From Coleofasciculus chthonoplastes F2-STO-03 (GTDB taxonomy: Bacteria > Cyanobacteriota > Cyanobacteriia > Cyanobacteriales > Coleofasciculaceae): 39,171 nt of DNA. The notes beneath the pieces were generated by a model, which was not told the DNA's origin, ran no database searches, and saw nothing but the letters and a program-made list of their open reading frames with translations. Position 1 is the stretch's first letter, and each line of letters opens with the position of its first letter. Made by a program: the position numbers and the translations under genes. Positions 1,849-26,499 of the stretch are shown in pieces. The stretch covers positions 1 through 39,171 of the forward strand of contig JAVJWO010000015.1 of assembly GCA_040222015.1 (NCBI GenBank). The letters are read 5' to 3'.

Positions 1849-2466
1849 ATGTCAAACCACCAATTCCCACCCAACCTGGGTCAACGCCGCACTCCGGGTA
1901 AGTCTAGCGGTCAATACCTGACCCCCTTTCAGCGCAAACGACTGCAAAAAAGTCTGCAAGAGGACTTACCAAAACACTATCGCCAGCGCCTGCAAATCAT
2001 GCTGTTAGCCGACGAGGGTAAAACCCAAGCCCAAATTTGTCAGGCGTTGAACTGTTCCCCCATCACCGCCCGACATTGGATGCTGATTGCCCGTAGCGGT
2101 GAGGCGCATAATTGGCAATCCCATCCCATTGGACGTCCTAAAGCCGTGAATGAAGAGTATCTGCAACGCTTACAAGAATTAGTCACTCAGAGTCCCCGCG
2201 ACATAGGCTATTCCTTTCGCAACTGGACCGCCCAGAAGTTAAGCCAACACCTGGCTAGAGAATTTGGCATTGAAGTGAGCGATCGCCATATTAATCGATT
2301 ATTGAAAAAAATGGGACTCTCGACTCGCCCCAAACCCCCTCAATCCGACACTCCCACCCATCCAGAGGAGGATTCAGATAAGCGGATTGTGATTAGCAAC
2401 CTCACCCCCAGCCATACCCCTGAAACCCAGGATGTGTGGCAATTTAATCCGATTAACATGAGTTGA
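1849..2466 (+). CDS. Helix-turn-helix protein resembling the IS630-family transposase DNA-binding region, no DDE domain; likely cluster regulator
   Basis: RLQIMLLADEGKT..I..ALNCS..TARHW, GRP, and W-T...L..HL...FGIEVSDRHINRLLKKMGL motifs. Ends 14 bp before the exporter ATG. Confidence 0.75.
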   Translation: MSNHQFPPNLGQRRTPGKSSGQYLTPFQRKRLQKSLQEDLPKHYRQRLQIMLLADEGKTQAQICQALNCSPITARHWMLIARSGEAHNWQSHPIGRPKAVNEEYLQRLQELVTQSPRDIGYSFRNWTAQKLSQHLAREFGIEVSDRHINRLLKKMGLSTRPKPPQSDTPTHPEEDSDKRIVISNLTPSHTPETQDVWQFNPINMS

Positions 2467-2480
2467 GGTGCACACCCATT

Positions 2481-5189
2481 ATGGTACAAACTCCACCCCG
2501 AATTTCCCGTCAACACCTTAGTGATTGTCTCGGACATGATTTTAGCGAGTCGCAATTCAGCAATTGTCTGAAACAGATTAAAATCCTTGAACCCAAACTC
2601 GGTCAATTTTGGCAATCGGATCAATCTGAAGCCGGACTTTACCTAATTATCACGGGCAAAGTTAGACTCATTGACGCTAACGGTGAACTGATTACCACCC
2701 TGAAACCAAAAGACACCTTTGGCGAAGTCACGTTTTTTCCCGATGAACCCTTTCACCCCTACTCCGCTAGGGCATCCCGTCATCTCCAATTATCCTACAT
2801 TCCCCCAACCCTCCTCTTTTCCCTCGTCCAAAACCATCCTCATATTCGGGATCATCTTTATCATCGGGCAAAGGTGAGGAATTCTCAGTTTAGTTCCGGG
2901 GATAATTTAGCCGTAACCCCAGTTATTCCAGAGGACACGGACACCCCAGAGGAATTAACAAACGGGCAGCAAACCATCAGCAAAGCCGACTTTCCCAATC
3001 CTACCCAGAAAGTCGGTCATCTCTGGCAGCGCATCACCCGCCGCTATCCCTTTTATGCCCAACAAAGTGCCTCGGATTGTGGGGCGGCTTGCTTAGTTAT
3101 GGTGGGTCGGTATTGGGGGAAAAAATTAAGTGTGAATCGCCTCAGAGATATCGCCAATGTTAACCGCAATGGTGCATCTCTACGGGGACTATCCGCCGCC
3201 GCTGAAAGTATTGGCTTTTCCACGCGACCCGTAAAAGCCAGTTTAGACCAACTCGCCCAACAACCGCTTCCGGCAATTGTTCACTGGGACGGAAATCATT
3301 ATATCGTTGTCTATGAAATTACGGCAAATCAGGTGATTGTCGCCGACCCAGCTATTGGTCAACGCAGTCTGACTCCGGAGGAATTTAACGCCAGTTGGAC
3401 AAGTTTTTCCCTCCTCTTGCAACCCACCGCTTTATTACAGGAAACCGAGGAGGCGACGACTCCCTTCTGGCAATTCTTTGAGTTAGTTAAACCCCACGGA
3501 TTTGTCCTCCTGGAAGTCTTCATTGCTTCCCTGCTGATTCAAATCTTCGGATTAATTACGCCCCTATTCACCCAACTCCTATTAGACCGAGTAGTTGTCC
3601 AAGGAAGCAACCTCACCTTAACCGCTGTTGGTTTAGGAATGCTAATTTTTGGTCTGTTCCGCGTCGCCATGACTGGATTGCGGCAATATTTATTAGACCA
3701 TACCGCGAATAAGGTTAACTTAGCCCTAATTGTCGGCTTTATTCGCCATACCTTCCGCCTCCCCCTTTCTTTCTTCGAGTCTCGTTATGTGGGGGATATT
3801 ATGTCACGGGTGCAAGAAAACCAGAAAATTCAGCGTTTTCTTACGGGTGAAGCCCTATCCATTTTACTTGACTTACTTACGGTTTTTGTGTATGTGGGGT
3901 TAATGTTCTGGTATAGCTGGAAAATGGCGCTATTGGCATTAGTGATTGTCCCGCCGTTTGTCCTACTGGCATTAATTGCCACCCCCTTCCTACGCCGCAT
4001 TTCCAGAGAGATATTTAATGCCTTTGCGGTAGAAAATAGCTATCTAATTGAATCCCTCACCGGAGTTCGCACCGTCAAATCAATGGCGGTAGAACAAACC
4101 GTGCGTTGGCGCTGGGAGGAACATCTACTGCAATCGGTGAAAAAGATGTTTTCGGGGCAGATTATTAGCAATCGCCTGCAAATTTTTAGCTCAACTCTAG
4201 AAACGGTGGTGACGACGGGGTTACTCTGGTTTGGCGCGTCGTTAGTGATTCAAAATGAACTGACGATTGGGCAATTAGTGGCATTTAATATGTTAATCGG
4301 CAACGTAATTACGCCCTTTGAACGATTAACCGTACTCTGGAATCAGTTACAGGAAGTGATTATTGCCGTTGAGCGAATTAATGATGTCATTGATACCGAA
4401 CCGGAAGAAAATTTACAAGCATCGGTGCGGCAAAGTTTACCGGAGTTAAAGGGAGAGATTCAGTTTGATCAGGTGACGTTTCGGTATCACCCCGAAAGCG
4501 ATATTAATGTCCTAGAAAACTTGAGCTTTACGGTAAACCCCGGTCAAACCGTCGCCCTAGTTGGACGCAGTGGTTCAGGAAAAACCACGATATCTAAATT
4601 AATTTTAGGACTGTATCCAACTACAGATGGGAAGGTGTTAATTGATGGGCAAGATATCACCAGTTTATCCCTCCAATCCCTGCGCCAACAAATCGGGGTT
4701 GTAGACCAAGATACCTTCTTATTTGGTAGCACCATCCGGGAGAATATTAGCATTGGTCATCCCTCAGCCACCCTGGACGAAATCATCACCGCCGCCCAAC
4801 AAGCCGGGGCGGATGAGTTCATCAAAAAGCTACCCATGGGGTATGAAACCCAGATAGGGGAAGGGGGTGGAATGTTATCAGGAGGACAAAGACAACGACT
4901 CGCGATCGCGCGGGCGTTATTAGGTAATCCCCGCTTACTTATTTTAGATGAAGCCACGTCTCATTTAGACGCTGAATCTGAACGAATTATTCAGACCAAT
5001 TTCAACACAATTCTCCAAGGACGAACCACGTTAATTATTGCCCACCGCCTGTCCACAGTTCGCAAAGCGGATTTAATTCTCGTGTTAGATAAAGGGGTTT
5101 TAGTCGAAAGTGGCACGCATCACCAATTAATGGCAAAACGCGGTCATTATTATTACCTGAATCAGCAACAAATGGATCGGACAGAATAA
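2481..5189 (+). CDS. Peptidase-containing type I secretion ABC transporter (cNMP-binding + C39 peptidase + TMD + ATPase; LanT/HlyB-like)
   Basis: cNMP-like LYLIITGKVRL..FGE. C39 triad motifs QQSASDCGAAC, HYIV and DPA. Walker A GRSGSGKT, signature LSGGQRQR, ILDEATSHLD, IAHRLST. Confidence 0.95.
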   Translation: MVQTPPRISRQHLSDCLGHDFSESQFSNCLKQIKILEPKLGQFWQSDQSEAGLYLIITGKVRLIDANGELITTLKPKDTFGEVTFFPDEPFHPYSARASRHLQLSYIPPTLLFSLVQNHPHIRDHLYHRAKVRNSQFSSGDNLAVTPVIPEDTDTPEELTNGQQTISKADFPNPTQKVGHLWQRITRRYPFYAQQSASDCGAACLVMVGRYWGKKLSVNRLRDIANVNRNGASLRGLSAAAESIGFSTRPVKASLDQLAQQPLPAIVHWDGNHYIVVYEITANQVIVADPAIGQRSLTPEEFNASWTSFSLLLQPTALLQETEEATTPFWQFFELVKPHGFVLLEVFIASLLIQIFGLITPLFTQLLLDRVVVQGSNLTLTAVGLGMLIFGLFRVAMTGLRQYLLDHTANKVNLALIVGFIRHTFRLPLSFFESRYVGDIMSRVQENQKIQRFLTGEALSILLDLLTVFVYVGLMFWYSWKMALLALVIVPPFVLLALIATPFLRRISREIFNAFAVENSYLIESLTGVRTVKSMAVEQTVRWRWEEHLLQSVKKMFSGQIISNRLQIFSSTLETVVTTGLLWFGASLVIQNELTIGQLVAFNMLIGNVITPFERLTVLWNQLQEVIIAVERINDVIDTEPEENLQASVRQSLPELKGEIQFDQVTFRYHPESDINVLENLSFTVNPGQTVALVGRSGSGKTTISKLILGLYPTTDGKVLIDGQDITSLSLQSLRQQIGVVDQDTFLFGSTIRENISIGHPSATLDEIITAAQQAGADEFIKKLPMGYETQIGEGGGMLSGGQRQRLAIARALLGNPRLLILDEATSHLDAESERIIQTNFNTILQGRTTLIIAHRLSTVRKADLILVLDKGVLVESGTHHQLMAKRGHYYYLNQQQMDRTE

Positions 5190-5231
5190 TTTGTCATTTG
5201 TCATTTGTCATTTGTCATTTGTCATTTGTTA
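5190..5231. repeat. STRR heptamer tandem repeat (TTTGTCA)x5 plus one imperfect copy
   Basis: Read directly. Similar arrays at ~20467-20508, ~23233-23260 and ~23583-23612. Confidence 0.9.
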
Positions 5232-5265
5232 TTCGTCAGACGCTTCAAAAGCACGTCTCTACATT

Positions 5266-6777
5266 ATGAACTCCAATCATACTCCCACCCCTCTCTTGAC
5301 CTCTGCGCCAACCTCTGCGGAACTCTGCGTTTCCCAAAAAAATCCCCCCTCTGACTGGTCCTATGCAACAAAAGAACTGCTGGATACCTTACCCCAAGTT
5401 TGGACAAGGGGACTGTTATATTTCTTAATTTTGTTTGCCGCGATCGCACTTCCTTGGGCAATGTTAACTGAAGTCGAAGAAACCGGAAGTGCTAGAGGGC
5501 GATTAGAACCCAAAGAACCCACCGTCAAACTGGAATCCTCTGTCGGCGGTACAATTATCAACCTCCCCGTTACTGAAGGAAACCGCGTCAAAAATGGACA
5601 AACATTACTCGCCCTCGAATCCGACATCGTGCGGTCAGAAATTGAGCAACTTCGTAGTCAATTAGACGGTCAAAAAAATCGCCTAAATCAGTTAGCCGTC
5701 CTCAAAAATCAGTTAGACCTTGCCCTCCATACCCAGCAGCGGCAGAACCAATCCCAAGAACTAGAAAAACAGTCTCAAATTGAACAAGCCCGACAAAACT
5801 TTAATGCCCTTGAGAGTACCTACACCCTGGAAAAAGCGGAAAAACTGGCTCAAGTAAACCAAGCAAAACAAGCCATTGCCTCCAGTCAAGCTGCCTACAA
5901 TCAAGCCCAAGTTAATTTAATCGAGGCAAAAGATAAAGTTCAACGCTACCGTAAAGCCTTTGAAGCCGGCGCCATTTCCACCGACCGCTTTACCGAATCA
6001 CAAAACCTGGTTAAAGTCAACATAGAACGCTTAGTTCAAGCCGAATCAGACATCTCCCAAGCCCGGTTACGGCTCAAAGAACAACAAGGCAGTTATGACC
6101 GAATTCTCCATCAAACTCAAGCCGAAATTGAGCAGGCAAAACTACGCCTACAGGAGCAAGAAAAAAGCTATGATACCCTAGTTCATTCCGGCAAACTAGC
6201 AGTTCTGAGAATTCAGGAACAACTCAAGAACCTAGAAACTCAGATGACCACACTCCAAACTGAAATCAAGCAAAGCGAAAGCCAAATTGCCGCCAAAGAC
6301 ATTGAACTCAAGCAGCGAGTCTTCAAAGCACCAGAAAGCGGCACCGTCTTTGGTTTACCAGATAAAGGAGTCGGGGCGGTGGTACAACCCGGAGAATTAA
6401 TTGCCGAGATTGCGCCCCAGGGTTCCACCTTAATTCTTAAAGCCCAAATGCCCACGGCTGAAAGTGGGGCGTTACAGGAAGGAATGGAGGTTAAGCTCAA
6501 ATTTGATGCCTATCCATTCCAGGATTATGGTGTGGTGGAGGGCAAACTAATTCGCAAATCGCCTACCTCTAAAGTCACCGAAACCGCTCAGGGTCAAGTG
6601 ACCAATTTTGAGTTAGAAATTGAGCTAAATCAGACCTGTATTGCTACCAAAAATCAATGTTTAGAGTTGAAACCAGGGGATACAGCCACGGCTGAAGTTA
6701 TCGTGCGGCGGCGAAAGATTATTGACTTTATTATTGACCCATTTAAGAAGTTACAAAAAGGAGGATTAGAACTTTGA
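5266..6777 (+). CDS. HlyD-family membrane fusion protein
   Basis: N-terminal TM helix, ARGRLEP, long coiled coil, VFKAPESGTV, KFDAYPFQDYG, LKPGDTATAEV. The ORF-track start at 5191 lies in the STRR array, so ATG 5266 is used. Confidence 0.93.
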   Translation: MNSNHTPTPLLTSAPTSAELCVSQKNPPSDWSYATKELLDTLPQVWTRGLLYFLILFAAIALPWAMLTEVEETGSARGRLEPKEPTVKLESSVGGTIINLPVTEGNRVKNGQTLLALESDIVRSEIEQLRSQLDGQKNRLNQLAVLKNQLDLALHTQQRQNQSQELEKQSQIEQARQNFNALESTYTLEKAEKLAQVNQAKQAIASSQAAYNQAQVNLIEAKDKVQRYRKAFEAGAISTDRFTESQNLVKVNIERLVQAESDISQARLRLKEQQGSYDRILHQTQAEIEQAKLRLQEQEKSYDTLVHSGKLAVLRIQEQLKNLETQMTTLQTEIKQSESQIAAKDIELKQRVFKAPESGTVFGLPDKGVGAVVQPGELIAEIAPQGSTLILKAQMPTAESGALQEGMEVKLKFDAYPFQDYGVVEGKLIRKSPTSKVTETAQGQVTNFELEIELNQTCIATKNQCLELKPGDTATAEVIVRRRKIIDFIIDPFKKLQKGGLEL

Positions 6778-6845
6778 TGTTCGCTCGCTCGTTCGCTCGT
6801 AGTAGGCACTTTAGTGCCATAAAACCTAACCCCCCAGCGAGTCTG

Positions 6846-6889
6846 AAAGCCTCTCTCCTTGCAGGAGAGAGGTTTGGAGAGAGGTTTTC
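6846..6889. repeat. Dispersed hairpin repeat AAAGCCTCTCTCCTTGCAGGAGAGAGGTTTGGAGAGAGGTTTTC
   Basis: Reverse-complement copy with one mismatch at 13115-13158. Confidence 0.9.
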
Positions 6890-6968
6890 CATAACCCGTG
6901 AAACGTAAGAAAACAATAGGGGTAGAAAGAAACTCCCCAGAAAACTCTAATTATTTAGGAGAAAAATC

Positions 6969-7712
6969 ATGTCACAAGCCATCACAATTACCAACCAAGA
7001 CATCCTGCATCACCTCAAACTCGCTTGTCAGATTCCCACAATTATCGAAGGAATTATCACCCGCAAAGTTATTAACTCAGCGGCGACTGAAGCCAGTATC
7101 CAAGTCGAAACCGCCGAATTACAACAAGCAGCAGATCAAATGCGGTTCATGAATAAACTGCTCAATGCGGATGACACCTGGGCGTGGCTGCAAAAATTCG
7201 CCCTTTCTCTGGATGATTTTGAAGAGATGGTTTATATCAATGTCCTTTCCGGAAAATTAGCCCAGCATTTGTTTGGTGATAAAGTGGAACCCTGGTTTTA
7301 TGAACATCAATTAGACTATGCAGCGGCGGTGATGTATGAAGTGGTTTTGGATGATGAAGATTTAGCCCTAGAGTTGTTTTATGAACTTCAGGAAGCAGAA
7401 ACCAGTTTTGCGGAGATTGCTCAGGAGTATATTCAGGAGGAAGAATTACGGCGCAAGGGAGGATATTTAGGATTGGTTAAACGCCAGCAAATGAAACCAG
7501 AGATTTCGGCGAAAGTGTTTGCGGCGACGCCAGGGGAGGTGTTGAAGCCAATTGTCACGTCTAAGGGGGTGCATTTGATTAAGGTTGAGGAGATTATTCA
7601 GCCGGAGTTGGATGACAAGCTGCGTTATCAGATTCTTTTGGAGTTGTTTGAAGGGTGGTTAAAGCGACAGGTTGAGGAGGTGGAGGTGGTGACGGCTATG
7701 GGCGAATCTTAG
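6969..7712 (+). CDS. PpiC/parvulin-type peptidyl-prolyl isomerase (T1SS-associated foldase)
   Basis: SFAEIAQEY..GGYLG..PEISAKVFA..PIVTSKGVHLIKVEE. AGGAG RBS. Confidence 0.88.
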   Translation: MSQAITITNQDILHHLKLACQIPTIIEGIITRKVINSAATEASIQVETAELQQAADQMRFMNKLLNADDTWAWLQKFALSLDDFEEMVYINVLSGKLAQHLFGDKVEPWFYEHQLDYAAAVMYEVVLDDEDLALELFYELQEAETSFAEIAQEYIQEEELRRKGGYLGLVKRQQMKPEISAKVFAATPGEVLKPIVTSKGVHLIKVEEIIQPELDDKLRYQILLELFEGWLKRQVEEVEVVTAMGES

Positions 7713-7730
7713 TTAACTTAACCGTTTACT

Positions 7731-7780
7731 GGGCGGTTGAAACCGCAGCTACACAAACGAAACCCGCCTGCGCGGGTTTC
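7731..7780. repeat. Two-hairpin dispersed repeat (family A)
   Basis: GGCGGTTGAAACCGC-AGCTACACAAAC-GAAACCCGCCTGCGCGGGTTTC. Relatives at 28151-28206 (reverse) and 36771-36826. Confidence 0.8.
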
Positions 7781-7858
7781 AAAGTAGGTATAAAAATCCA
7801 CAAAATATAGTATTTAGGTATGAGTTTAATTGTATTAATTTACCCCTAGCCTCTATCT

Positions 7859-7888
7859 GTAGGGTGCGTTACGCTTCGCTAACGCACC
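7859..7888. repeat. REP-like palindrome
   Basis: GTAGGGTGCGTTACGCTTCGCTAACGCACC. Confidence 0.85.
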
Positions 7889-8041
7889 ATTGGCACTGTT
7901 TTAACAGGTTCAAACCTTACCTGATAGATGATGAGGGTACAATGTCAATAGAGTTTTTTCAGCGTGATCGAGGTAAAAATCCCAAAGGAATCGTTGCTAT
8001 TGATTTACGAAGGTGGGAACCATGATTAAGAACGAACACGA

Positions 8042-8069
8042 GTAGAGACGTAGCATGCTACGTCTCTAC
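8042..8069. repeat. Perfect palindrome, family GTAGAGACG...CGTCTCTAC
   Basis: GTAGAGACGTAGCATGCTACGTCTCTAC. Relatives at 26617-26644, 28836-28859 and 36689-36712. Confidence 0.9.
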
Positions 8070-8169
8070 AAATTTGGGCGTGTTGATTACCAGCAATCTT
8101 GACGCTTACCGTGAAGGTAATGCAAATGCTAGTTCAGCTTATTAACTTATAAAAAAATCTATTGCCTAT

Positions 8170-8562
8170 TTAATTATTATCTAATAATTCTAGCTGATTT
8201 TCGGATATTCTCAACCTTAAAAAAGATGCAACTTGAGATGCGATATCCCTATCATTCCGAGATATATATAGCCAGACTTGTCCTTGATTATGCTTCGGAA
8301 TATAACTAAGTAATTTCAACCTCTGCACTCTGACAACTAATGCTGTTCTTAACCAGCTTTTATTGAGTGTAACTGAGTCAATGTATTGAATGGGAATTAT
8401 CACCTCTTTTATTCCAGATTTAAGAATACCAAAAAGGTTATCTTTAATCTCAAACTCTAAGGTTAAGGCATCCTCATCAACTCGCACGATTCCTTGAGCT
8501 TTGGCAAAGCCTTCATACACATTGGCAAATGAGAAGGGGAGGATAATAGACGGTATTGTCAT
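8170..8562 (-). CDS. Hypothetical protein (130 aa), possibly PH-like beta fold
   Basis: Clean ORF with alternating beta-strand patterns and a C-terminal amphipathic helix. Directly downstream of the precursor genes. Confidence 0.7.
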   Translation of the reverse strand: MTIPSIILPFSFANVYEGFAKAQGIVRVDEDALTLEFEIKDNLFGILKSGIKEVIIPIQYIDSVTLNKSWLRTALVVRVQRLKLLSYIPKHNQGQVWLYISRNDRDIASQVASFLRLRISENQLELLDNN

Positions 8563-8629
8563 TTTATGGACTATTTAAAATGGCTTCATAATTATTATAA
8601 ACATTATTGCTTGCTCGAACTATGCCCAT

Positions 8630-8668
8630 AAATAAAATGCCTGCCTCGAAAACAAGTCAAAGGCAGGC
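8630..8668 (-). terminator. Likely intrinsic terminator downstream of precursor 1
   Basis: GCCTGCCT-loop-AGGCAGGC stem followed by a U-rich tract on the minus strand. Confidence 0.6.
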
Positions 8669-8749
8669 GCAGACTGAACAAATCTAGATTTGATTAACTC
8701 CCATGTTTAGGAGAAAGTGATTAAAAAATTTAGGCAAGAGTTTGCTTAC

Positions 8750-8938
8750 TTACCACCAACTTTTTTTAGCACCGTAGATCGTAAGAGCAGTGCCAGCTAT
8801 AAAGCTAACACACAAAGGAGAGGAACCACCGTGCGTCATAGTCAGCTCATCATTCGTTAGCTCATTGAGATAGCTTTCGGAATCCCCAAATAATTCGGAA
8901 CCCGTGGGACGCAGGTTAGAGATTTGAATCGTAGCCAT
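8750..8938 (-). CDS. RiPP precursor peptide A1 (38-aa double-glycine leader + 24-aa core SSPLCVSFIAGTALTIYGAKKSWW)
   Basis: Leader ELTNDELTMTHGG fits the C39 cleavage consensus and is homologous to the A2 leader. GGAGG RBS upstream of ATG 8938. Confidence 0.9.
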   Translation of the reverse strand: MATIQISNLRPTGSELFGDSESYLNELTNDELTMTHGGSSPLCVSFIAGTALTIYGAKKSWW

Positions 8939-9231
8939 TGATTGATTTTCCTCCAATTCATGTTCGTCTTGATTGTCGATACTATTGAATCAATATCGAC
9001 ACTTATATTTAATCAAATATAAAACCTATAAACAACCTTGTGTACTGATTTTAAAAGACCTTATTTTTAATTTTTAAATGGCTGATCAATGAGTAAAACA
9101 AGCAGGGCGATAGCTCTGGTGAGCTAAAAATAGTTATTTCAATGCAAAATCCTCTAGAATTAACTCAATATTTTATTTTTTTTGTCTTATTTTATTGAAG
9201 TATATATAAAATCTATTTGAGGGTTTAGCTG

Positions 9232-9271
9232 CAAAAAATAAAATAGCCTCCTGAAAAATCAGGTGGCTATT
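9232..9271 (-). terminator. Intrinsic terminator downstream of precursor 2
   Basis: AATAGCCTCCTGA-AAAA-TCAGGTGGCTATT stem followed by a poly-U tract on the minus strand. Confidence 0.75.
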
Positions 9272-9299
9272 CAAAAGTATAAATTATTTTGTCAAGTTA

Positions 9300-9497
9300 T
9301 TAGAAATGACGCTCCCACCATCGACCGAGTTCAAATGCTGAATATGCTACCGATACTGAAACCGCAATACAGGCAGGAGTAGATCCCCCTTGTATCATGT
9401 TCAACTGTTCTCCATTCAACTCATTAAGATAAGTTTCTGAATCAGTGAAAAATTCGGAACCAACAGGATTGAGATTGCCAATTTTGATTGTAGCCAT
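9300..9497 (-). CDS. RiPP precursor peptide A2 (38-aa double-glycine leader + 27-aa core STPACIAVSVSVAYSAFELGRWWERHF)
   Basis: Leader GSEFFTDSETYLNELNGEQLNMIQGG aligns without gaps to A1. Ser/Thr-rich core with a single Cys at position 5. Confidence 0.9.
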   Translation of the reverse strand: MATIKIGNLNPVGSEFFTDSETYLNELNGEQLNMIQGGSTPACIAVSVSVAYSAFELGRWWERHF

Positions 9498-9756
9498 TGA
9501 TAGTTATCCGTTAAACTGCGAACTCGTTTTTGTTTACATTAATAATTTAATAAATTCACGTCATGATAGCAAGTGAACTTCGCCTAAAAAAAGGACATAT
9601 AAATAAATATATGTTCTCGATTGTATACACCCCCAATACATCCTATAGCATTTTAATGCTTGAATTTATAGTTTCCTTTTACAAACAAGTTACATTTAAG
9701 TAAAAATAGTAAATATTTTGTCTTAAATTATAGACTTGATCAGATGAGATACGTGG

Positions 9757-9783
9757 GTAGGGGCGCAAGGATGGTGCCCCTAC
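9757..9783. repeat. REP-like palindrome GTAGGGGCGC...GTGCCCCTAC
   Basis: GTAG/CTAC-bounded hairpin. Relative at ~14971-14995. Confidence 0.75.
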
Positions 9784-9857
9784 AGTTGAATGTACTATCA
9801 GCGATTGAGAACCGCTATATTATAAACACTATAAAATCAACTAGACTCTATCTCCCA

Positions 9858-9979
9858 ACAAAAAACCTGCCCCTAACAATTTAGAGACAGGCTTTCAACC
9901 TAATCCAATACCGATTTAAGTTGGAAAGACAACTGTGTCTGAATTTTTACAAAACTGCCTCCAATTGAATTAGAGGCAG
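9858..9979 (-). terminator. Two tandem hairpins (probable terminators) after the second PpiC gene
   Basis: CTGCCTC..GAGGCAG (9955-9979) and CCTGCCCCTAA..TTAGAGACAGG (9866-9891), each followed by U-runs on the minus strand. Confidence 0.6.
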
Positions 9980-10001
9980 AATTGACGCCTACTTAATGTT
10001 T

Positions 10002-10754
10002 CTATTTAGCCAATGCGTTAGACTGATATCCCCCTTGTAACCAACCCTGAAACAGAAACTCCAACACCTGTTCCCTGACTTCAGCCAACTCCGCCGGAAA
10101 CCACTTCTCAACTTGAAGAATGTGATACCCTAGCTTCGTTTGAACTGGATCAATCACCTCACCCTCTACAGCCTCAGATACAGCTTGGGCAATCTCCGGT
10201 AGCAATTCTGCCAAAAATCGCACCCCGACAAAACCGCCATTTTCCTGAGACTGCTTCCCCTTCGAGTGTTCCAACGCTAAGACACAAAACGACACCTTCC
10301 CCTCGCGAAGCGCCTGGGTAATTTTCACCGCCTCTGTCAAATCCCGTACCAGAATCTGAGACAGCGCCACCCGTTTATAATTATCGCGATCGCTCATATA
10401 ATGACTATCAATCGCCTCACCAAACAGATGTTCTCTCAATTTCTGCCTCAGCAGCGATATCCGCACTCCCTGGGACCAATCTTCTACAGAAATGCGCTGT
10501 TGTGCTAACCAGGCTAAGGTTTCCGATGTTCCCAGCAGTTTGTTCTCCTGGCGAAATGCATCCCCCGCCGCTTGTAACTCTTCCTCAGATACCGTAATCC
10601 CTAATTGCTGACAAACCGCCACAATTAACGCATTCTGTTCCGCCGCTGCTGCAATTTCGGCGATGTGGTAAGAATGGCGTAAATAGGCAAGGATATCTTT
10701 ATCTGTTGCTGGAGTAATTTCGGGTAATGTGAATTGTTCTAGTGTTTCTGGCAT
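10002..10754 (-). CDS. Second PpiC/parvulin-type peptidyl-prolyl isomerase
   Basis: ALSQILV..SFCVLALEHS..ENGGFVG..LLPEIAQAV..PVQTKLGYHILQVE. AGAGG RBS. Confidence 0.88.
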   Translation of the reverse strand: MPETLEQFTLPEITPATDKDILAYLRHSYHIAEIAAAAEQNALIVAVCQQLGITVSEEELQAAGDAFRQENKLLGTSETLAWLAQQRISVEDWSQGVRISLLRQKLREHLFGEAIDSHYMSDRDNYKRVALSQILVRDLTEAVKITQALREGKVSFCVLALEHSKGKQSQENGGFVGVRFLAELLPEIAQAVSEAVEGEVIDPVQTKLGYHILQVEKWFPAELAEVREQVLEFLFQGWLQGGYQSNALAK

Positions 10755-10903
10755 GATTTTCCTCTTTTTTCATGAGTCATTGGTGGTAGAAGCGAAGCAT
10801 CTATCCAGATTCTTCACTCCGCTGTCGCTGCGTTCAGAATGACATCTTATGACAGGGGAAAGTATGCATTTTTCACCCAATCGGTTGTCATCTTTTTGTG
10901 AAT

Positions 10904-11908
10904 CTAATCTGGATAAATTAAGCGTTCTGGTGAAATATCGGAGACAGAAAGCCGATGGCGATGTAAATCCCCATAAAGATTGAGATAATCAATTTCTTCA
11001 GGGGTTAACTTGCCCTTTTGCACACCGGATATCGCCGCATCAATTTCCTCCCGACACCGCAATCCGGTCAAACAAACATCAACACAGTTCTGACTCAACG
11101 AATAGCGATATAAATCGGGTACAGACGGTTGCCAACATCCTTCCGGTAACCCCGCCGGCGCATCCCAAAGCGCACCAGAATGAGACCCGGTAGACTTAAA
11201 GGTAACAACGCCCGGACGGTTATGATCTCGGATATCTAAGCGATTAAACACCTGATTTTGGGCAGAACGGTGTGCCAGATTATGTCTCACCATCACGACA
11301 TCTAATAAGGGACTATTTGACCACTGCTGCGCCAGGTTCATATCGTGGAAGGATGCGCCAATATACCGCACCGCCCCCATTTTCTTCAGCCGTTCCGATA
11401 TGCCAAAAAATCGTTCAATTGTGCGCTGATAAACGGAATTGGCGCCGCGCAAATCGGGGGAAAGCTGCAAGCAATTCTTAAACGATTGCCCATCATTCGC
11501 ACCAATCCATCCCCAGAACAATACATCAATATAGTCGATTTTTAGTTCCACAAACTGATCCAATAAAGCCGCCAGTGCGACTTCGGGATTCTTCATATAT
11601 GTCACTGTTGCCAGTACGACGTTCTCCCGCACCGATGATTTTCGCCCACATAATTGGCGTAGGGCATCCGCCATGGAACTATAAATATGGTGGTGTAAGT
11701 CGCTGGAATAGAAAAAGTAGTTAATTCCTTGGTCAAAGGCGTAGAGTGTATCCTGGCTCGAAATTCCACCACCCCCACCTAATCCTAAACAACTAACAGT
11801 TAAATCAGTCCGTCCTAAGGGGCGGTAAAATGAAAAGTCAGAGTCGGGTAAATCAGGAATTTTAACGGCGGGTTTGATAACTGAGGGAGCAATGTCTGTG
11901 ATTTGCAT
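10904..11908 (-). CDS. Aldo/keto reductase-fold protein with non-canonical active site
   Basis: YRPLGRTDLTVSCLGLG, GINYF, LKIDYIDV, GAVRYIGASFH and C-terminal GLRCREEIDA motifs typical of the AKR barrel. Confidence 0.85.
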   Translation of the reverse strand: MQITDIAPSVIKPAVKIPDLPDSDFSFYRPLGRTDLTVSCLGLGGGGGISSQDTLYAFDQGINYFFYSSDLHHHIYSSMADALRQLCGRKSSVRENVVLATVTYMKNPEVALAALLDQFVELKIDYIDVLFWGWIGANDGQSFKNCLQLSPDLRGANSVYQRTIERFFGISERLKKMGAVRYIGASFHDMNLAQQWSNSPLLDVVMVRHNLAHRSAQNQVFNRLDIRDHNRPGVVTFKSTGSHSGALWDAPAGLPEGCWQPSVPDLYRYSLSQNCVDVCLTGLRCREEIDAAISGVQKGKLTPEEIDYLNLYGDLHRHRLSVSDISPERLIYPD

Positions 11909-11974
11909 GATGTTAAGAGGAATGGCGCTAGTTTGTAGTAGGCACGAAGCGTGCCAGAAGCGCTAAAGCGCTTA

Positions 11975-13066
11975 CTACGAACCCAGTAAAGGGGTATAAT
12001 TATCGTCAGAATTGGCATTGAGATAGGCACGGTTGATGTCAATTCCAAACAGAGAAAACTGTTGGAGAATTGCCTGCATCCGCCCCTCTGGGGAGTTATC
12101 GCCGTTTTGCCAAGCTTCTAGTAACCCATTGGCAACCAGTTGACAGCGGTTCATGCCAAAACTTTCTTGTGTGCCAAATTTGGTATCGGGTTCTTCGGCT
12201 AACCCTAATCCGGGGGCGAGGACTTTGGTAAATAGGGGAACTTGTGGTTTAAAATGGGCTTGATTTTCCGCATAGATAACCTGAAGCACTTGGCGAACCG
12301 TGGGGTAATTGGGTTTATCGAAGTAGAAAACTCCTGAATCATAACGTCCGTAGTCGGCGGGGTTATACAGGACTTTAAAGCTAAAGGGTAGGTTAATTGC
12401 GTTAAACTGTTGGGTTAAACTATCCATGACCGAAACCGCCCCGTCTGGGGTGAGGTTAAAGTAAATTCGCACGGTTTCTGAGGGATGATTTAAGCTTGGT
12501 TCACTCTGGGTTCCGGCGTTACTCACTGCCATGTAAAATCCGTTTTGGATCAGATTTTTGGGCATCCGAATCGCTACGGTATCCCCAATAGCTGCGGCTT
12601 GGTTGGGGTGGAGATGGCGTTGGGGTTCAATATGCAGCTTTAAACTACCTTTGCTGACGACAATTGTGTTATCTGATTCTTGTTTGAGGACGAACCAACC
12701 GGGGTCAAAGTAACCGGTTCCTTGATTGTGATCGTGTAATTGTTGATAGAAGTTTAAGTCTAATCCTAAAAGGGTATTGTTTTCTAGGTCTAGGGGTATG
12801 GCTGGGTTATCGGTATTCAGGGCGAGGCTATTTTCTAGGGATTGATTGTAGTAGATCCCGTAGAGAAATCCCCGCAGTTGCAGACTCCAGTACCGTTGTT
12901 GGATGTCTGGGGGCATTTTCTGGAGACGGTTAATTATTTCTTGGGGTAGTTCAAAGGGTTTGTAGTTGGGATGATGGATGGAAAAGTTGGCTTGGAGTTC
13001 TATGGTGTTGGCGATGTTTTGTAAGGTGTCGAGGAGGGAATGGGTGGGGATGTTTAGGAGTTGCAT
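11975..13066 (-). CDS. HopA1-family protein; putative phosphoSer/Thr lyase (LanY-like)
   Basis: VRIYFNL, FSFKVL, RYDSGVFY, GLAEEP and SFGMNRC motifs. Adjacent to an APH kinase. Confidence 0.88.
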   Translation of the reverse strand: MQLLNIPTHSLLDTLQNIANTIELQANFSIHHPNYKPFELPQEIINRLQKMPPDIQQRYWSLQLRGFLYGIYYNQSLENSLALNTDNPAIPLDLENNTLLGLDLNFYQQLHDHNQGTGYFDPGWFVLKQESDNTIVVSKGSLKLHIEPQRHLHPNQAAAIGDTVAIRMPKNLIQNGFYMAVSNAGTQSEPSLNHPSETVRIYFNLTPDGAVSVMDSLTQQFNAINLPFSFKVLYNPADYGRYDSGVFYFDKPNYPTVRQVLQVIYAENQAHFKPQVPLFTKVLAPGLGLAEEPDTKFGTQESFGMNRCQLVANGLLEAWQNGDNSPEGRMQAILQQFSLFGIDINRAYLNANSDDNYTPLLGS

Positions 13067-13101
13067 GGTTTGTTTTTTAACGCAGAGAACAAGACTTACT
13101 T

Positions 13102-14283
13102 TTAACAGAATCTAGAAAACCTCTCTCCAAACCTCTCTCCTGCGAGGAGAGAGGCTTTGAATTTTCCCCCTTCCGTGCCAAAAATAGTGGGTATGGATTG
13201 TTGGGGACGACAGAGTAGGGTTTTGGCAACTTGCAGCATGGCGATTCCTGAGTTGCCAAAGGATTTTTGGTATTGAATTGTTGCTTGAATTTGTTGAATT
13301 AAGGCTAAACCTGCAAATTGGATGATTTGGAGTAAGAGGGTGGGGCGGTGTGTTAAAATTTCCGGGAAGTTGTGGAAATAGGCTTGGGTTAAGCTGGCAA
13401 TTGAGGGTTGGAGTTGGTCGAGGGGAGTTGTGGCTAATCGCAGGGATTCTTCGAGACTCAGGGCGTTGCTAATCACCAAACTATCCAGCCAAATTTGGAT
13501 ATAGCTAGCGATGAGAGTTCCTACGTCAAAGGCTGGATCTCCCCAACGAGAACGTTCCCAGTCAATCAATCGTACTATGCGATCGCGCGATTGTTCCCAG
13601 TGGTTGGAAAGCAGGATATTATTGAGTTTTAGGTCATTGTGGGTGAGACAACTGGGGGTGAAGGTTTTGCCGAGTTGTGCGATCGCGTTTCCTAAACTGT
13701 CGTATCGTTGATAGAGGGCAAAGAATTTGAGTCCATCGACTGGAACGAGTCCAAAGATTTCTGGAGTGATTCGTTCTAATCCGCTAATCAGGTTGGGTAC
13801 GGTTTCGGGGAGGGAGTGAGAATGTTGTGAGAAAAAGTGCCGATAGTCGTCCCGGTTAAACGTGGCGCGATGAATAGCCGCCAGAGTGGTACCAATAGAC
13901 GCCGCGATCGCACTCGGGAAGATTGTCTCTTCGGCGTAGAATTCCATTACGTCGCGGTACTCGTCTAAGTAGCGGAATATGATGATTGATTCCCCCGGAT
14001 CAAAATGCAGTACCTGGGGTAGATAGGGGTGAAGGGTAGTGAGTTCCCGAAAGTGCTGTACAAACTCCTGAATGCGCCATTCTTGTCCAAATTCTCCGGC
14101 TGTTTTCCCGTCCTGATTATACCGTTCTTGCTTAACTAGGAGTTTTTTCCCGTCGGGTAAGGTGACTAAAAGGTTAAAGTTTTTCGCCGCAACGGGTTTA
14201 ATGATGAGCTGATTTTGGTTTTCTGGGGGACATAGCCCCAGTCGGATTAAATAGTTGGGGAGGTTAATTGAGCTTAATTGCAT
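13102..14283 (-). CDS. Aminoglycoside-phosphotransferase-family kinase; putative peptide Ser/Thr kinase (LanK-like)
   Basis: KNFNLLV, LLVKQE, Brenner motif HNDLKLNNILL and LIDWE..WGDPAFD. Confidence 0.9.
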   Translation of the reverse strand: MQLSSINLPNYLIRLGLCPPENQNQLIIKPVAAKNFNLLVTLPDGKKLLVKQERYNQDGKTAGEFGQEWRIQEFVQHFRELTTLHPYLPQVLHFDPGESIIIFRYLDEYRDVMEFYAEETIFPSAIAASIGTTLAAIHRATFNRDDYRHFFSQHSHSLPETVPNLISGLERITPEIFGLVPVDGLKFFALYQRYDSLGNAIAQLGKTFTPSCLTHNDLKLNNILLSNHWEQSRDRIVRLIDWERSRWGDPAFDVGTLIASYIQIWLDSLVISNALSLEESLRLATTPLDQLQPSIASLTQAYFHNFPEILTHRPTLLLQIIQFAGLALIQQIQATIQYQKSFGNSGIAMLQVAKTLLCRPQQSIPTIFGTEGGKFKASLLAGERFGERFSRFC

Positions 14284-15262: not shown

Positions 15263-18200
15263 ATGATGACCATAAATCAAAGCTTACAACGTCTGATACA
15301 GGGAAGCGCGATCGCACTATTCCTCTTCATCCCCTGTAACCCTGTCCTCGCCCAGATTACACCCGATTCCACATTAGGCGCTGAAGGTTCCTCAATCCTA
15401 CCCAATGGAGTGGTTATCGATGGAGTAACCGCCGATTTAATCAAGGATGGCGCCAGCCGAGGTTCGGCATTATTCCATAGCTTTTTAGAGTTTAATATTA
15501 ATCAAGGGCAACGGGTTTATTTTGCCAACCCTGACGGAATTGAAGCCATTTTCAGTCGGGTGACGGGAACTGATCCCTCGGACATTTTGGGGACATTAGG
15601 CGTCAACGGTGCAGCCGATTTAATTTTCATCAATCCCAATGGAATTCTTTTTGGTGAAAATGCTCAATTAGACATTCGGGGTTCCTTTATCGGGAGTACA
15701 GCCAATGGGGTGATATTTGAGAATGGCACTATCTTTAGTGCGACTAATCCAGAAGCGCCGCCATTGTTAACCATTAATGTTCCCTTGGGTTTGCAATATG
15801 GAAATCAGAATTCAGCCGCGATTACGAATTCTGGGAGTTTACAAGTCGGTAAAAATTTAACCTTAGTGGGCGGAACAATTACCAGTTTAGGACAATTAGC
15901 CGCCCCCGCCGGACATTTGGAGATAGCCGCCGTAAATGGGGATGCAATCGTGCGGGATGGGTTGGCGCAGTCGGCTATTTTATTCGCGAATAATCATTTA
16001 ATTTTAGAAGAAAGTCAGTTAGTCACCGCTGGAGATTTAATCCTGTTGTCGGGGGATACGGTGCGGGTGCGGGATAGTGTCGAAATTCCGTTTATCGCCC
16101 ATGCAGGTGGGAATCTTTATATTCAAGGAAATCAAAGCATTGATATTCTGGCATTGAATCATCCAGGAACGCCGTTTCAGAGTGGTGGGGCTTTGAGTTT
16201 AGTTAGTGATGGGGTCATTTCTGGAGATGCTCATTTTGCCAGTGGGGGTCAGTTTGCAATTCTGAATTTGGCGGGGGAACCGGGTGATTTTGTCAGTTAC
16301 TATGACCCGATTATTAGTGTAGATGGAGATGTGATTATTGGGGATTATACAGGCGCTTCACTGTTAATCGAAGCCACCGGAAGCATCAAGACAGGAAATA
16401 TCACAATTACTCAAGCTGATATATCTTTAAATGATACGAATGACCCCACTGACTCAGATATTGCTATATTGACAAGTGAGCCAGCCTTAATTATGCGATC
16501 GGGAGTTGATACTTTAAAGTATCCGGTAACTCCCCCAATTTCACCCCAGCCACCACAGCCACCACCAACCAACTCCACATTCGAGTATGAAAATGATTTT
16601 GAAGGAGCAGTTGGTTCAGAATGGTCTAATACCAAAACAGACCAAACACCCGACGAAGGCACAATCGATACAACTTTCCTGGGACTATTTGGTCAAGAAA
16701 CGGTAAGCTTAACACTTAATGATCTTCCCTCACCTGCCAATGTGACAGGCTCTTTTGATCTATTTATTATTGGCTCATGGGATGGTAATGACACCTCAGC
16801 GATTAGTGGACCAGATGTTTGGCAGTTAAGGATTGATGATAATGTGTGGGTAAATGCAACGTTTAGTAATGTCAACAGTAAACAGTCATTTCCTGATGAT
16901 TATCTTCAAGGAGAACATCCGTCCCATCAATCGGCTGATCACATAGACGAATTGGGATATACGTCTTCAACTATCCCTGATTTAACCTTCGGTGACTCAA
17001 TCTACACGATAGAGTTTTCTCTTGAACACACATCAAACTCTCTACAAATCGATTTTTCTAAATTACCACCCGGAGAAGTGCTTGAAAATGAAAACTGGGG
17101 GATAGATGATATCGAGGTAGTTGCGGAAGTTTCCTCAACGCCCCCAGTCACACCACCGGATAATAGCTCAACTTTACCCTCTTTCACGACTTCTGTAAAA
17201 CCGTCAGATGCCAGTATCACCACAGTTAATATTGAAACTTTAGGAGGACGAGTTATCTTAGACGCAACCAGTGATATTAATCTGATTGGAGGAATTACCT
17301 CCAATGGTGGCGAGATTAGTATTCATAGTGATAGTGCAGTCAATGCCACGGGAGTGATTATCGATTCCACGAATAATGAAGGAACGGGTAATAGTGGTAA
17401 TATTGACGTTACAGCACAATCAGTTTCTCTCGCTGATGGTGCCCGATTACTTTCTAGAGTAGTTGGTAACAATCAGGGAGGAAATATCACGGTAAAGGCT
17501 TCTGAGTCAGTTAACCTGACTGATTCATTACCGGAGGGAAATTCAACAGGTTTGTTTGCTACCTCTGATGGGAGTGGTGAACCAGGAAATGTTTTCGTAG
17601 AAACTCCAGAGTTAAATCTTCAAGGAAGAGCGAGAATATTAACGGAAGCTTACGATATAGGAAATGCTGGAGAATTAAGGATTGAAACTGACCGTTTAAG
17701 CCTTCAGGGTGGTGCTAGAGTATCAGCTTTAACCTCGGGTCAAGGTAAAGGAGGAAATATAATCGTCGAGGCTACGGAGTCTGTTCAATTAATCGGTAGT
17801 GATGGAACATTTCCCAGCGCCCTGACGACTAATGCCCTGACCAATGGACTGTTTAAGCCAGGAGATGCCGGAAATTTAACTATTAATACCAATCAGTTAA
17901 TTGTGCAAGATGGGGCAATCGTAACCGCTTCCACAACCACAACTGGTGAGGGAGGAGATTTAACCGTAAATGCCTCAACAGTGCAACTCAGTGGAACAGG
18001 TATCTTGAACAACGGTGATGAAATTCCTACTGGTTTATTTACTGATACCAGTAACATTGGTAATGCTGGAGATTTAACCATTAACACCACGAACTTGATT
18101 GTGGAAGATGGCGCGATAGCCTCAGCGTCTACCTTTGGTCAAGATAGTCAGGGAAGTCAAGGAGGAAACTTAATCGTGAACGCTGTTTCCGTTGAACTCC

Positions 18201-19201: not shown

Positions 19202-19317
19202 TGAATGGGGGATAATAATTAGTGATGAGATTGAGTTGGTGAGGCGCGAGGTTATAGCAGTTTCCAAGTACGTGAGGGACAGCCAAATATAGGGGAAATG
19301 CCACTGACTGATTTGCT

Positions 19318-19510
19318 GGTGGGCAATGCCCACCCTACGGTATATCTTGCTCCCCTCTCCCCGGCGTGGGAGAGGGGCTGGGGGTGAGGGGTTGAGCTTA
19401 AGTTGACACGGATGAAGGCTTGCGCCCTGATGGACTTCATCTTATGAGCAACGCTATATATTTTTTAATGCAGAGGTTGACGCAGAGGGCGCAGAGGTTC
19501 GCAGAGAGAT
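19318..19510. repeat. Cluster of dispersed repeats upstream of the Rpn gene
   Basis: GGTGGGCAATGCCCACCCTAC hairpin, TCCCCTCTCCC..GGGAGAGGGG hairpin and a (CGCAGAGG) array. The last has an inverted relative at ~23460-23510. Confidence 0.75.
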
Positions 19511-19568
19511 GGAGATGTGGGGAGGTGAAGGGTTGATAGTTCTGAAATAACCCGGAGGTGGATGACTG

Positions 19569-20405
19569 ATGACATTTATTAATCCGAAAACTGATTTTGC
19601 CTTTAAGAAGATTTTTGGCTCCAAGAAAAGTAAAGAAATTTTGATTAGTTTCTTGAATGCCATTCTGTATCAGGAACAGGAGATGATTCAAGACTTAGAA
19701 ATCCTTGACCCGTATCAATCGCCTCGCATCCAGGGGATTAAGGATTCCTGTTTAGAGGTTAAAGCCGTCATCACTGGAAACAAAACCGTCATCATTGAAA
19801 TGCAGGTACTCAACGTTTTAGGCTTTGAGAAACGAGTCCTGTATAATGCCGCCAAAGCCTTTTCCATTCAACTGGGCGTCGGGGAAGATTACAACTTGTT
19901 TAATCCGGTGATTGCCTTAACCATTACCGACTTTGAGATGTTCTCCAATAGCGCCAAAGTCATCTCTCGCTATTGCCTTAAGGAAAAGGAAGAGTTAACG
20001 GATTATACCGATGATATTGAATTAGTCTTTGTCGAATTACCCAAATTCAATAAAACCTTGGAGGAATCAGAAACCTTAACCGATAAATGGCTCTACTTCC
20101 TCAAATTCGCCAACACCTTAAAAGACGTGCCGCCGCCAATGGCAACGATTCCCGCCATGAAACAGGCATTTACCATCGCCAGACAGAGTAAACTCACTAA
20201 GCGAGAGTTAGAAGCCTTGGAAAAGCGAGAGATTTTTATTCAAGATAGTCAGAATGCGATTCGTAAAGCCAAACTAGACGGAAAAGAGGAAGGTATGCAG
20301 GAAAAAGCGATTGCCATTGCCCGCCAACTTCTCGACGTTTTAGACATTGAAACAATCAGTCAAAAAACTGGATTAAGTATTACCGAGATTCAAGACTTAA
20401 CCTAA
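19569..20405 (+). CDS. Rpn family recombination-promoting nuclease / putative transposase (PD-(D/E)XK-like)
   Basis: INPKTDFAFKKIFG, IIEMQ, FVELPKF, DKWLYFLK and C-terminal GKEEG..IAIARQLL..ISQKTGLS. GGAGG RBS. Confidence 0.9.
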   Translation: MTFINPKTDFAFKKIFGSKKSKEILISFLNAILYQEQEMIQDLEILDPYQSPRIQGIKDSCLEVKAVITGNKTVIIEMQVLNVLGFEKRVLYNAAKAFSIQLGVGEDYNLFNPVIALTITDFEMFSNSAKVISRYCLKEKEELTDYTDDIELVFVELPKFNKTLEESETLTDKWLYFLKFANTLKDVPPPMATIPAMKQAFTIARQSKLTKRELEALEKREIFIQDSQNAIRKAKLDGKEEGMQEKAIAIARQLLDVLDIETISQKTGLSITEIQDLT

Positions 20406-20495
20406 ATGTCACTGACTAGTATGTTGGTGGGTTGAGCGAAGTCGAAACCCACCCTACGGCTTCCCAAACAACGAATAACAAAGGACAAATGACGA

Positions 20496-26459: not shown

Positions 26460-26499
26460 ATGATTATTTAGCTGAGTTTTTACCGTATGTGGCACCTCT

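Follow-up and report, generated by a model that had tools for sequence, protein, structure and literature searches.

A cyanobacterial LanK/LanY-type peptide cluster carries a remodelled aldo/keto reductase-fold protein, a candidate dehydroamino-acid reductase

A kinase/HopA1 peptide cluster in Coleofasciculus chthonoplastes

We analysed a 39,171-nt stretch of Coleofasciculus chthonoplastes F2-STO-03 (hereafter the window) that carries a cluster for putative peptides made on the ribosome and modified after translation (RiPPs), in which a split kinase/lyase dehydratase stands beside a protein of aldo/keto reductase (AKR) fold. The modification genes lie on the minus strand: a LanK-type Ser/Thr kinase of the APH family (13102-14283, 393 aa; PF01636, E 7e-15), a LanY-type phosphoSer/Thr lyase with a HopA1 domain (11975-13066, 363 aa; PF17914, E 4e-59), the AKR-fold protein with a remodelled active site (10904-11908, 334 aa; PF00248, E 4e-6) and a PpiC/SurA-type peptidyl-prolyl isomerase or chaperone (10002-10754; PF00639, E 6e-14, with TIGR04500, a peptide-maturation family, below cut-off). 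They are joined on the same strand by two precursor genes, A1 (9300-9497) and A2 (8750-8938), each encoding a 38-aa double-glycine (GG) leader followed by a core of 27 and 24 aa, respectively. Kinase, HopA1 protein, AKR and PpiC recur together with the same leader family across dozens of genomes, which indicates that the gene arrangement is not due to chance. At 93-95% identity, the window HopA1 protein closely matches those of named Coleofasciculus assemblies, in keeping with a filamentous cyanobacterium as host. Of all genes in the cluster, the AKR is the most unusual.

Family scans covered 18 window proteins (499-27939) and found no flavoprotein decarboxylase, methyltransferase, luciferase-like reductase, LanC or YcaO among them, in agreement with an initial annotation of this DNA that had listed no HFCD decarboxylase, methyltransferase or F420 reductase. 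The two PF02441 matches of the genome lie on other contigs than the cluster (contig C15), and its two PF05147 (LanC) matches are likewise off-cluster (contigs C159 and C89).

The kinase and HopA1 protein resemble a LanK/LanY-type dehydratase

The kinase contains the catalytic residues K51, H215-x-D217-x-K219-x-x-N222 and D241-W-E243, which are conserved in about 90 relatives. The HopA1 protein matches PDB 9dk1_B (E 1e-8), described in the available text as LxmY of the lexapeptide dehydratase (PMC12141560). Its residues R200, K231, R241 and Y248 are spaced within one residue of R187, K219, R229 and Y236 of CaoY, the first three of which are required and the last conserved according to the accessible part of the CaoY study (PMC9486802). 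Sequence comparison thus supports the view, already taken in the initial annotation, that the pair is a predicted split LanK/LanY-type dehydratase with intact catalytic residues, and separate LanK and LanY proteins of this kind are the dehydration system of class V lanthipeptides. The kinase scores at E 9e-29 against NF038156 (LxmK), yet its 100.7 bits lie below the cut-off of 315, which speaks for a distant LanK and against an LxmK equivalog.

This assignment is further supported by the company that the lyase keeps. Across 97 fetched HopA1 loci, family precursors lie nearby in 72 of the 75 cases with an intact R-K-R-Y lyase, whereas 17 of 21 fully aligned but altered lyases are without one, so that the co-occurrence of kinase/HopA1 pairs with such precursors named in the initial annotation stands for intact lyases and does not extend to most altered ones. 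Where an AKR stands beside the lyase, R-K-R-Y is kept throughout (53 of 53 fully aligned lyases), and none of the 21 altered lyases is accompanied by an AKR. These counts also bear on the proposal that the C39 transporter exports A1 and A2 as unmodified class II bacteriocins, with kinase, HopA1 and AKR serving something else. Precursor A1 gives weak matches to class IIb bacteriocin leaders (TIGR03949/TIGR03893), and 18 of 43 AKR-less cyanobacterial loci do have a kinase/HopA1 pair without precursors (the 43 being the best-scoring of 76 AKR-less HopA1 matches). However, the lyase site is altered in 17 of these 18 pairs, and the ring-motif enrichment described below makes sense only with dehydration, so we regard this proposal as very improbable.

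We further note 17 kinase/HopA1 loci in which the lyase Lys is replaced by Gln or Glu and which have no family precursor and no exporter (L054, L055, L057, L058, L060, L061, L063, L065, L109, L110, L113-L115, L118, L122, L123 and L125). These pairs apparently represent a second, non-RiPP use of the kinase and HopA1 protein. A dataset published in 2021 has, as far as it is available, some HopA1 rows with genes for thioesterase, AMP-binding, enolase, chorismate-binding and prenyltransferase proteins in their place (PMC8153245). At four other loci, poly-Arg cores are fused to family leaders beside catalytically altered lyases (L059 4378; L126 15447; L127 13465; L128 4165), and these peptides might be phosphorylated instead of dehydrated.

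Precursor cores and the predicted N-terminal ring

The A1 core begins with S-T-P-A-C and has further Ser residues at core positions 9, 11 and 15, and the A2 core begins with S-S-P-L-C and has further Ser/Thr at positions 7, 12, 15 and 22. The two precursors are 48% identical, both show the (S/T)2-X2-C motif that marks (Me)Lan formation in class V, and neither core has a C-terminal Cys. A leader profile seeded on five precursors recovered about 240 relatives from the fetched loci. Among these, [ST][ST]xxC occurs in 26 of 49 distinct Cys-containing cores against 2.8 expected by shuffling (maximum 10 in 5000 shuffles), and in 21 of 40 Cys cores against 2.4 after dereplication at 40% identity, although the loci are related and the shuffle figures therefore overstate the significance.

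Lanthionine ring closure has been described as non-enzymatic and dependent on a Dha-Dhb-X-X-Cys sequence (Dha, dehydroalanine; Dhb, dehydrobutyrine) in the available text of one study, which assigns LanX to the closure of S-aminovinyl-cysteine (AviCys) (PMC12291118), and cyclase-free closure of such rings is likewise reported in that of another (PMC11186320). Since rings of this kind close without a cyclase, the missing cyclase is no obstacle at this locus. By analogy with these systems, a Ser1-Cys5 lanthionine would probably form in both window peptides; the single N-terminal lanthionine of the initial annotation is thereby backed by the S-[ST]-P-x-C starts, the motif enrichment and the published chemistry. 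The same annotation's exclusion of AviCys also stands, with no decarboxylase at the locus and no core ending in Cys. Its label 'lanthipeptide', in contrast, suits this locus and not the whole family, as 95 of 136 cores in AKR-bearing loci have no Cys.

Cores of the AKR loci all contain Ser/Thr (136/136), and half of the loci (26/52) have no Cys core at all. In 61 dereplicated Cys-free cores of AKR loci, adjacent Ser/Thr pairs are depleted (44 vs 104+-8), and in the Cys-free cores of these loci pairs at i+5 are raised (138 vs 94+-8), in counts drawn from related and hence not independent sequences. The adjacency depletion is absent in 23 cores from AKR-less loci (29 vs 32+-4) and absent for Val/Ile. 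In a separate AKR-less subfamily (L062, L064, L066, L067, L112, L116, L117, L119 and L120), 4-9 almost identical precursors stand in tandem, their cores rich in Tyr, Gly and Asp.

The AKR-fold protein has a remodelled active site

The AKR was modelled with AF2 from an alignment (pLDDT 93), a model used in place of a single-sequence fold that reached a pLDDT of only 36.5. The model has the (beta/alpha)8 AKR fold and aligns best to AKR barrels at Z 24.9, with a root mean square deviation of 3.0 over 255 residues and 20% identity. Members of the superfamily such as AKR11, Kv-beta and L-galactose dehydrogenase share the fold at Z 23-25 and 16-23% identity. The fold differs from the Zn-dehydrogenase, flavin reductase and luciferase-like folds of LanJA, LanJB and LanJC.

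The canonical AKR catalytic tetrad is Asp-Tyr-Lys-His. Where its Asp, Lys and His stand, the window AKR shows F66, V102 and W132/G133 when aligned, by sequence and by profile, to Kv-beta2, IolS and AKR11C1, and the position of the Tyr is ambiguous; on these alignments, the canonical tetrad appears to be lacking. A different set of residues, D70, H72, Y76, Y104, H188, R208 and N210, is invariant in 57-58 aligned AKR loci (D70, H72, Y76 and Y104 in 57/57) and includes a new invariant motif, D-x-H-x-x-x-Y. A GLG motif, S186, F237 and G282 align with cofactor-site positions. A change of tetrad is compatible with reduction of C=C bonds in at least one AKR, the steroid 5-beta-reductase AKR1D1, which has an altered tetrad. 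A complex prediction of the AKR with NADP and A1 scored 0.00 and weighs neither way.

The same residues invite the reading that the AKR performs other or no chemistry on dehydro residues, either a non-redox addition (of water or a thiol, or as an aid to cyclisation) or a scaffold or chaperone function in which it binds the dehydrated peptide or the dehydratase. In addition to the replaced Asp, Lys and His and the new invariant set (D70, H72, Y76, Y104, H188 and R208), AKR fusion to the lyase suits a helper role, and the share of [ST][ST]xxC cores is higher in AKR loci (20/92) than in AKR-less ones (1/31). A cyclase role would not be general, however, because half of the AKR loci have no Cys core, and the LanB and LanM loci described below already own cyclase domains. 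A scaffold would have to serve three unrelated dehydratase folds, so that a common protein interface seems unlikely. Overall we consider this group of explanations rather unlikely.

In a second alternative, the AKR would reduce an N-terminal pyruvyl or 2-oxobutyryl group to lactyl or hydroxybutyryl after leader removal, as ElxO reduces an N-terminal keto group in epilancin. Ketone reduction is the normal AKR reaction, and both window cores begin with Ser. N-terminal keto reductases, like LanJ enzymes, are known to accompany dehydratases of different classes. A link between short-chain dehydrogenases/reductases and lactate in lanthipeptides is noted in the available part of PMC7268733. The reading is opposed by the core starts across the family: only 19 of 136 AKR-locus cores start with Ser/Thr, 12 of these have Cys5, which would cap residue 1, and an uncapped N-terminal Ser/Thr is left in only 7/136 cores from 5/52 loci (a count that a second trimming protease could alter). 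The carbonyl-reducing tetrad is moreover missing, and cleavage by the exporter would allow the peptide little time in the cytoplasm. We therefore judge keto-acid reduction improbable.

Occurrence and dehydratase partners of the cluster AKR

Close AKR homologues are widespread in cyanobacteria, with 120 among the matches listed at 73-96% identity. We collected 59 AKR loci: the window and 58 fetched from one sample of the class and another of the order, where a fragment at a contig edge was excluded and one duplicate was counted once. HopA1 lies in the stretch at 53 of these 59 AKR-selected cyanobacterial loci, five adjoin a LanM that scores above the cut-off of TIGR03897 (at least four of them with NHLP precursors) and one is broken, with a family precursor still there. 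The gap between AKR and HopA1 is below 240 bases in 50/54, and at least one PpiC is present in 53/54 AKR-bearing loci. By comparison, none of the ten ordinary AKRs of this genome is on a contig with a dehydratase match.

A profile search of 1.8 billion representatives found distant AKR relatives, including a HopA1-AKR fusion (P0188); a second such fusion, of 709 aa, is found at the cyanobacterial locus L078. With P0188 as query we obtained 79 metagenome loci of the distant group, many on contigs under 2 kb and with near-duplicates kept. LanB is present in 26, LanC in 12 and HopA1 in 2 of the 79, and where 2 kb is available on both sides a dehydratase (LanB or HopA1) is found at 12 of 16. D-x-H-W-x-x-Y occurs in 79/79 metagenome matches, but the motif was within one search pattern, so that this count is circular and is not taken as evidence.

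In a quick tree of 64 rows that includes six ordinary AKRs of the same genome, all cluster AKRs form one clade apart from the ordinary ones (SH-aLRT 100). LanM partners fall at three places in this tree, with eight label changes, and LanK/LanY partners lie inside the LanB group. This scatter of partner types suggests that the AKR was retained while the dehydratase was swapped. LanB, LanM and LanK/LanY have only their product, Dha/Dhb, in common, and on this ground we read the AKR as an enzyme of Dha/Dhb. By analogy with known LanJ enzymes, it could be an NAD(P)H-dependent reductase that turns Dha/Dhb into D-Ala/D-Abu, in the usual place of LanJ, a role to which we give about an even chance. 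The initial annotation, which gave the AKR no role, predicted products that are merely dehydrated; dehydration is supported, but the description is incomplete, as the AKR may well reduce dehydro residues.

That a dehydroamino-acid enzyme accompanies any dehydratase and is optional would also fit self-protection, in which the AKR quenches electrophilic dehydro peptides or by-products and the mature products stay dehydrated; AKRs often detoxify electrophiles. Here the tight operon position, the lyase fusion and the non-random Ser/Thr spacing of the cores point instead to maturation of the core, and we hold self-protection to be an outside possibility.

Several observations weigh against the role of the AKR as a dedicated dehydroamino-acid reductase. 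Gene context ties it to dehydration and not to a given reaction. The NAD(P)H site is putative, inferred from alignment, and with the usual tetrad absent the AKR might not be a redox enzyme. In a class sample of 401 genomes, 19 AKR matches fall in 16 genomes and 91 HopA1 matches in 62, and only 15 of these 91 are accompanied by an AKR, which makes the AKR optional. A paralogous cluster of the same genome is without one. No dehydratase is present at 4 of the 16 well-flanked distant loci. Among 81 of the 112 neighbouring frames at 12 distant loci of this kind, Pfam searches turned up a single further LanC, the remaining matches being to kinases, sigma-54 activators and transport genes, so that the link of the distant group to dehydratases is not complete. 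The L078 fusion might reflect a lost stop codon. An apparent Ser/Thr enrichment of the AKR-locus cores (raw p 1e-7) was dropped after dereplication (0.214 vs 0.190, p 0.07).

The paralogous cluster (L001, contig C64, 2916-16695) combines kinase/HopA1 with HTH/C39/HlyD/PpiC genes at 62-75% identity to those of the window and has three family precursors; behind its HopA1 gene, next to a PpiC remnant, lies a cassette read by eye as a Nif11-like precursor and a radical-SAM-like gene. The LanM and AKR loci L045 (6521-17278), L046 (3670-19944) and L102 have many NHLP precursors, the listed cores of which are Cys-free; L046 has three LanM genes and L045 a microviridin-type ATP-grasp gene. At L143, the precursor next to LanB/LanC and an AKR (9193-9522, minus strand) has a GG leader, and its long core is rich in Ser and has two Cys at the C-terminus. 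The LanB/AKR locus L136 encodes a fusion of an HExxH membrane protease to HlyD (16069-18456; daptide-type model, below cut-off). Distant AKRs are also fused to a JmjC/cupin domain (P0250), HEAT repeats (P0224, P0232, P0242, P0251, P0257 and P0261) and an ABC ATPase (P0204).

Export operon and neighbouring genes

The export operon lies on the plus strand and is headed by a helix-turn-helix (HTH) protein (1849-2466; PF13565/PF13592, with NF033545 below cut-off). It is followed by an ATP-binding cassette (ABC) transporter that contains a peptidase, with cNMP-binding, C39 and ABC regions (2463-5189; PF00027, PF03412, PF00664 and PF00005), an HlyD-type membrane fusion protein (5266-6777; PF13437, with TIGR01843 just below cut-off) and a second PpiC/SurA-type protein (6969-7712; PF00639, E 2e-14) that is 32% identical to the first. 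The transporter probably starts at ATG 2481 and has the C39 residues C206, H279 and D295, which together with the GG leaders agrees with the two double-glycine precursors and C39 export of the initial annotation. A longer HlyD frame from TTG 5191 runs through a short tandem repeat; a 7-base tandem repeat occupies 5189-5237, between transporter and HlyD.

The HTH protein resembles the N-terminal part of IS630 transposases. It has no DDE domain and holds a fixed position in 39 of the 42 loci that have a close transporter, so that a live transposase is ruled out and the protein is likely a regulator. Every gene named in the initial annotation was found at its place and strand in the open reading frame (ORF) listing and family scans, including those for APH, HopA1 and C39; the list had overlooked a 130-aa ORF behind A2 (8170-8562, minus strand). 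This ORF has no Pfam match, recurs in no more than two further loci, which are close relatives, and resembles unnamed hypothetical proteins in the atlas; it is possibly accessory and not a core part. A Ser/Thr kinase-TPR gene at 24738-26516 was rejected as LanX, being a eukaryote-type Pkinase 10 kb away.

The gene just mentioned lies within the span of a neighbouring signalling/adhesion island (window 15263-27939) that encodes a TPS-domain filamentous protein, a PD-(D/E)XK protein, a CHAT-TPR protein, a TPR protein, a Pkinase-TPR protein and an HTH-STAND NTPase. In L001, the paralogous cluster is bordered by a similar STAND/HTH pair as well. Two near-identical short ORFs (95-433 and 1149-1406) enclose a clan AA aspartic protease gene (499-987) immediately upstream of the window cluster. 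A dispersed short repeat with matches on many contigs forms the last codons of the kinase (window 13124-13160) and recurs behind HlyD (6842-6878); the repeat search of the window found short intergenic repeats only. Promoter and terminator scans of the DNA were at chance level (15 vs 14.8 expected and 6 vs 7.7 expected, respectively). Four RNA-labelled runs with a relative of about 94-95% identity were rejected as evidence of transcription, as contig records of up to 109 kb suggest DNA.

Discussion

The window cluster is a member of a family already known in silico. Family 1A of Eyles 2021 comprises 570 peptides in 183 clusters, found only in cyanobacteria and with a conserved double-glycine leader and variable cores, in the text available (PMC8153245), and a type B of putative cyanobacterial LanA, with no member characterised, is described in the accessible part of Liang et al. 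2022 (PMC9486802). The novelty of the cluster type was thus overstated in the initial annotation. Like these groups, the window combines a HopA1 protein and a phosphotransferase with several GG-leader precursors that have a conserved leader and variable cores, and one Family 1 peptide of dataset 2 in the 2021 study is letter-identical to our leader-profile match L081. Co-occurrence with PpiC and with aldo/keto reductase is tabulated in dataset 1 of that study, whose main text assigns no function to the AKR and does not report conserved Ser/Thr/Cys (PMC8153245); the [ST][ST]xxC subfamily and the AKR clade common to LanM and LanB loci go beyond that main-text description. Distant cyanobacterial kinase/lyase pairs are also mentioned in the available part of PMC7794033. 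The long C39-ABC transporter with CAP_ED, the HlyD protein and the SurA/rotamase are shared with cyanobacterial bacteriocin groups I/II of Wang et al. 2011, in the accessible text of which phosphotransferase has no occurrence and the modification set of the window is not mentioned (PMC3140520). Our literature search, which was weak on subscription journals, turned up neither an AKR with reported action on dehydroamino acids nor a characterised cyanobacterial LanKY product.

Class Va lanthipeptides (cacaoidin, lexapeptide, pristinin A3, triantimycins and rosins) share with the window the LanK/LanY dehydratase and the (S/T)2-X2-C ring made without LanC, and several members have D-amino acids derived from dehydro residues. 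The window differs from class Va in having no LanD, LanX, C-terminal Cys, F420-dependent LanJC or methyltransferase, and in having a C39 exporter, PpiC and the AKR-fold gene instead. Without LanD, LanX and a C-terminal Cys, the Avi(Me)Cys terminus typical of class Va is not to be expected. The LanC in the cluster that distinguishes class Vb is also missing, as is the YcaO and TfuA pair of thioamitides, neither Pfam being found among the 18 scanned proteins. The locus is comparable to a class Va pathway reduced to its N-terminal half, yet belongs to neither Va nor Vb.

LanJ enzymes are optional oxidoreductases encoded beside dehydratases of more than one class and occur with Ser/Thr-rich, often Cys-poor cores, features that the window AKR shares, and NpnA of Nostoc is a Cys-free precedent for their substrates. 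They differ in fold, the AKR, a candidate reductase, being a TIM barrel. The recognised dehydroamino-acid reductases LanJA (Zn/NADPH), LanJB (flavin) and LanJC (F420H2) recur across lanthipeptide classes, according to the available texts (PMC11519912, PMC7268733).

These comparisons suggest a pathway of four steps. The kinase would phosphorylate Ser/Thr of the core and the lyase would eliminate the phosphate, as inferred from the activities of CaoKY, LxmKY and RosKY. Cys5 would then add to Dha1 in the Dha-Dhx-Pro-Xxx-Cys start, by the chemistry seen in the rosin and triantimycin work. The AKR, judged by its gene context, would pass a hydride from NAD(P)H to the remaining Dha/Dhb, with the direction and the D-stereochemistry assumed by analogy with LanJ. 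Finally, the C39 domain would cut after GG and the peptides would leave via HlyD, the PpiC proteins presumably assisting. The products are likely hydrophobic peptides of 24 and 27 residues with one N-terminal lanthionine and D-residues, perhaps amphipathic and, speculatively, a two-component membrane-active antimicrobial. The calculated masses of the unmodified cores are 3068.50 Da (A1) and 2585.34 Da (A2); loss of five and six H2O, respectively, would lower them to 2978.44 and 2477.27 Da, and reduction of the three and four dehydro residues that lie outside the ring would then give 2984.49 and 2485.33 Da.

Extended to the whole clade, this reading would make the AKR a fourth, AKR-fold class of dehydroamino-acid reductase, with a tetrad remade to reduce C=C bonds and a gene that moved repeatedly between LanB, LanM and LanK/LanY systems of cyanobacteria and of other phyla, a proposal that we advance tentatively and rate at slightly under an even chance. 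Should the AKR prove to be no reductase, the locus would simply add a new, ordinary member to an already listed family. If a fourth class exists, the remodelled AKR site would have gained a new reaction, and one soluble NAD(P)H enzyme would stand behind three dehydratases, useful for peptide engineering with neither F420 nor a special host needed. The gene would also serve as a marker for D-amino-acid RiPPs currently annotated merely as 'aldo/keto reductase'. For a family as large as the 183 clusters of the 2021 survey, the analysis offers a testable product prediction together with a candidate gene: many Family 1A clusters would make linear Cys-free peptides with regularly spaced D-residues, of which the window peptides would be a lanthionine-capped version.

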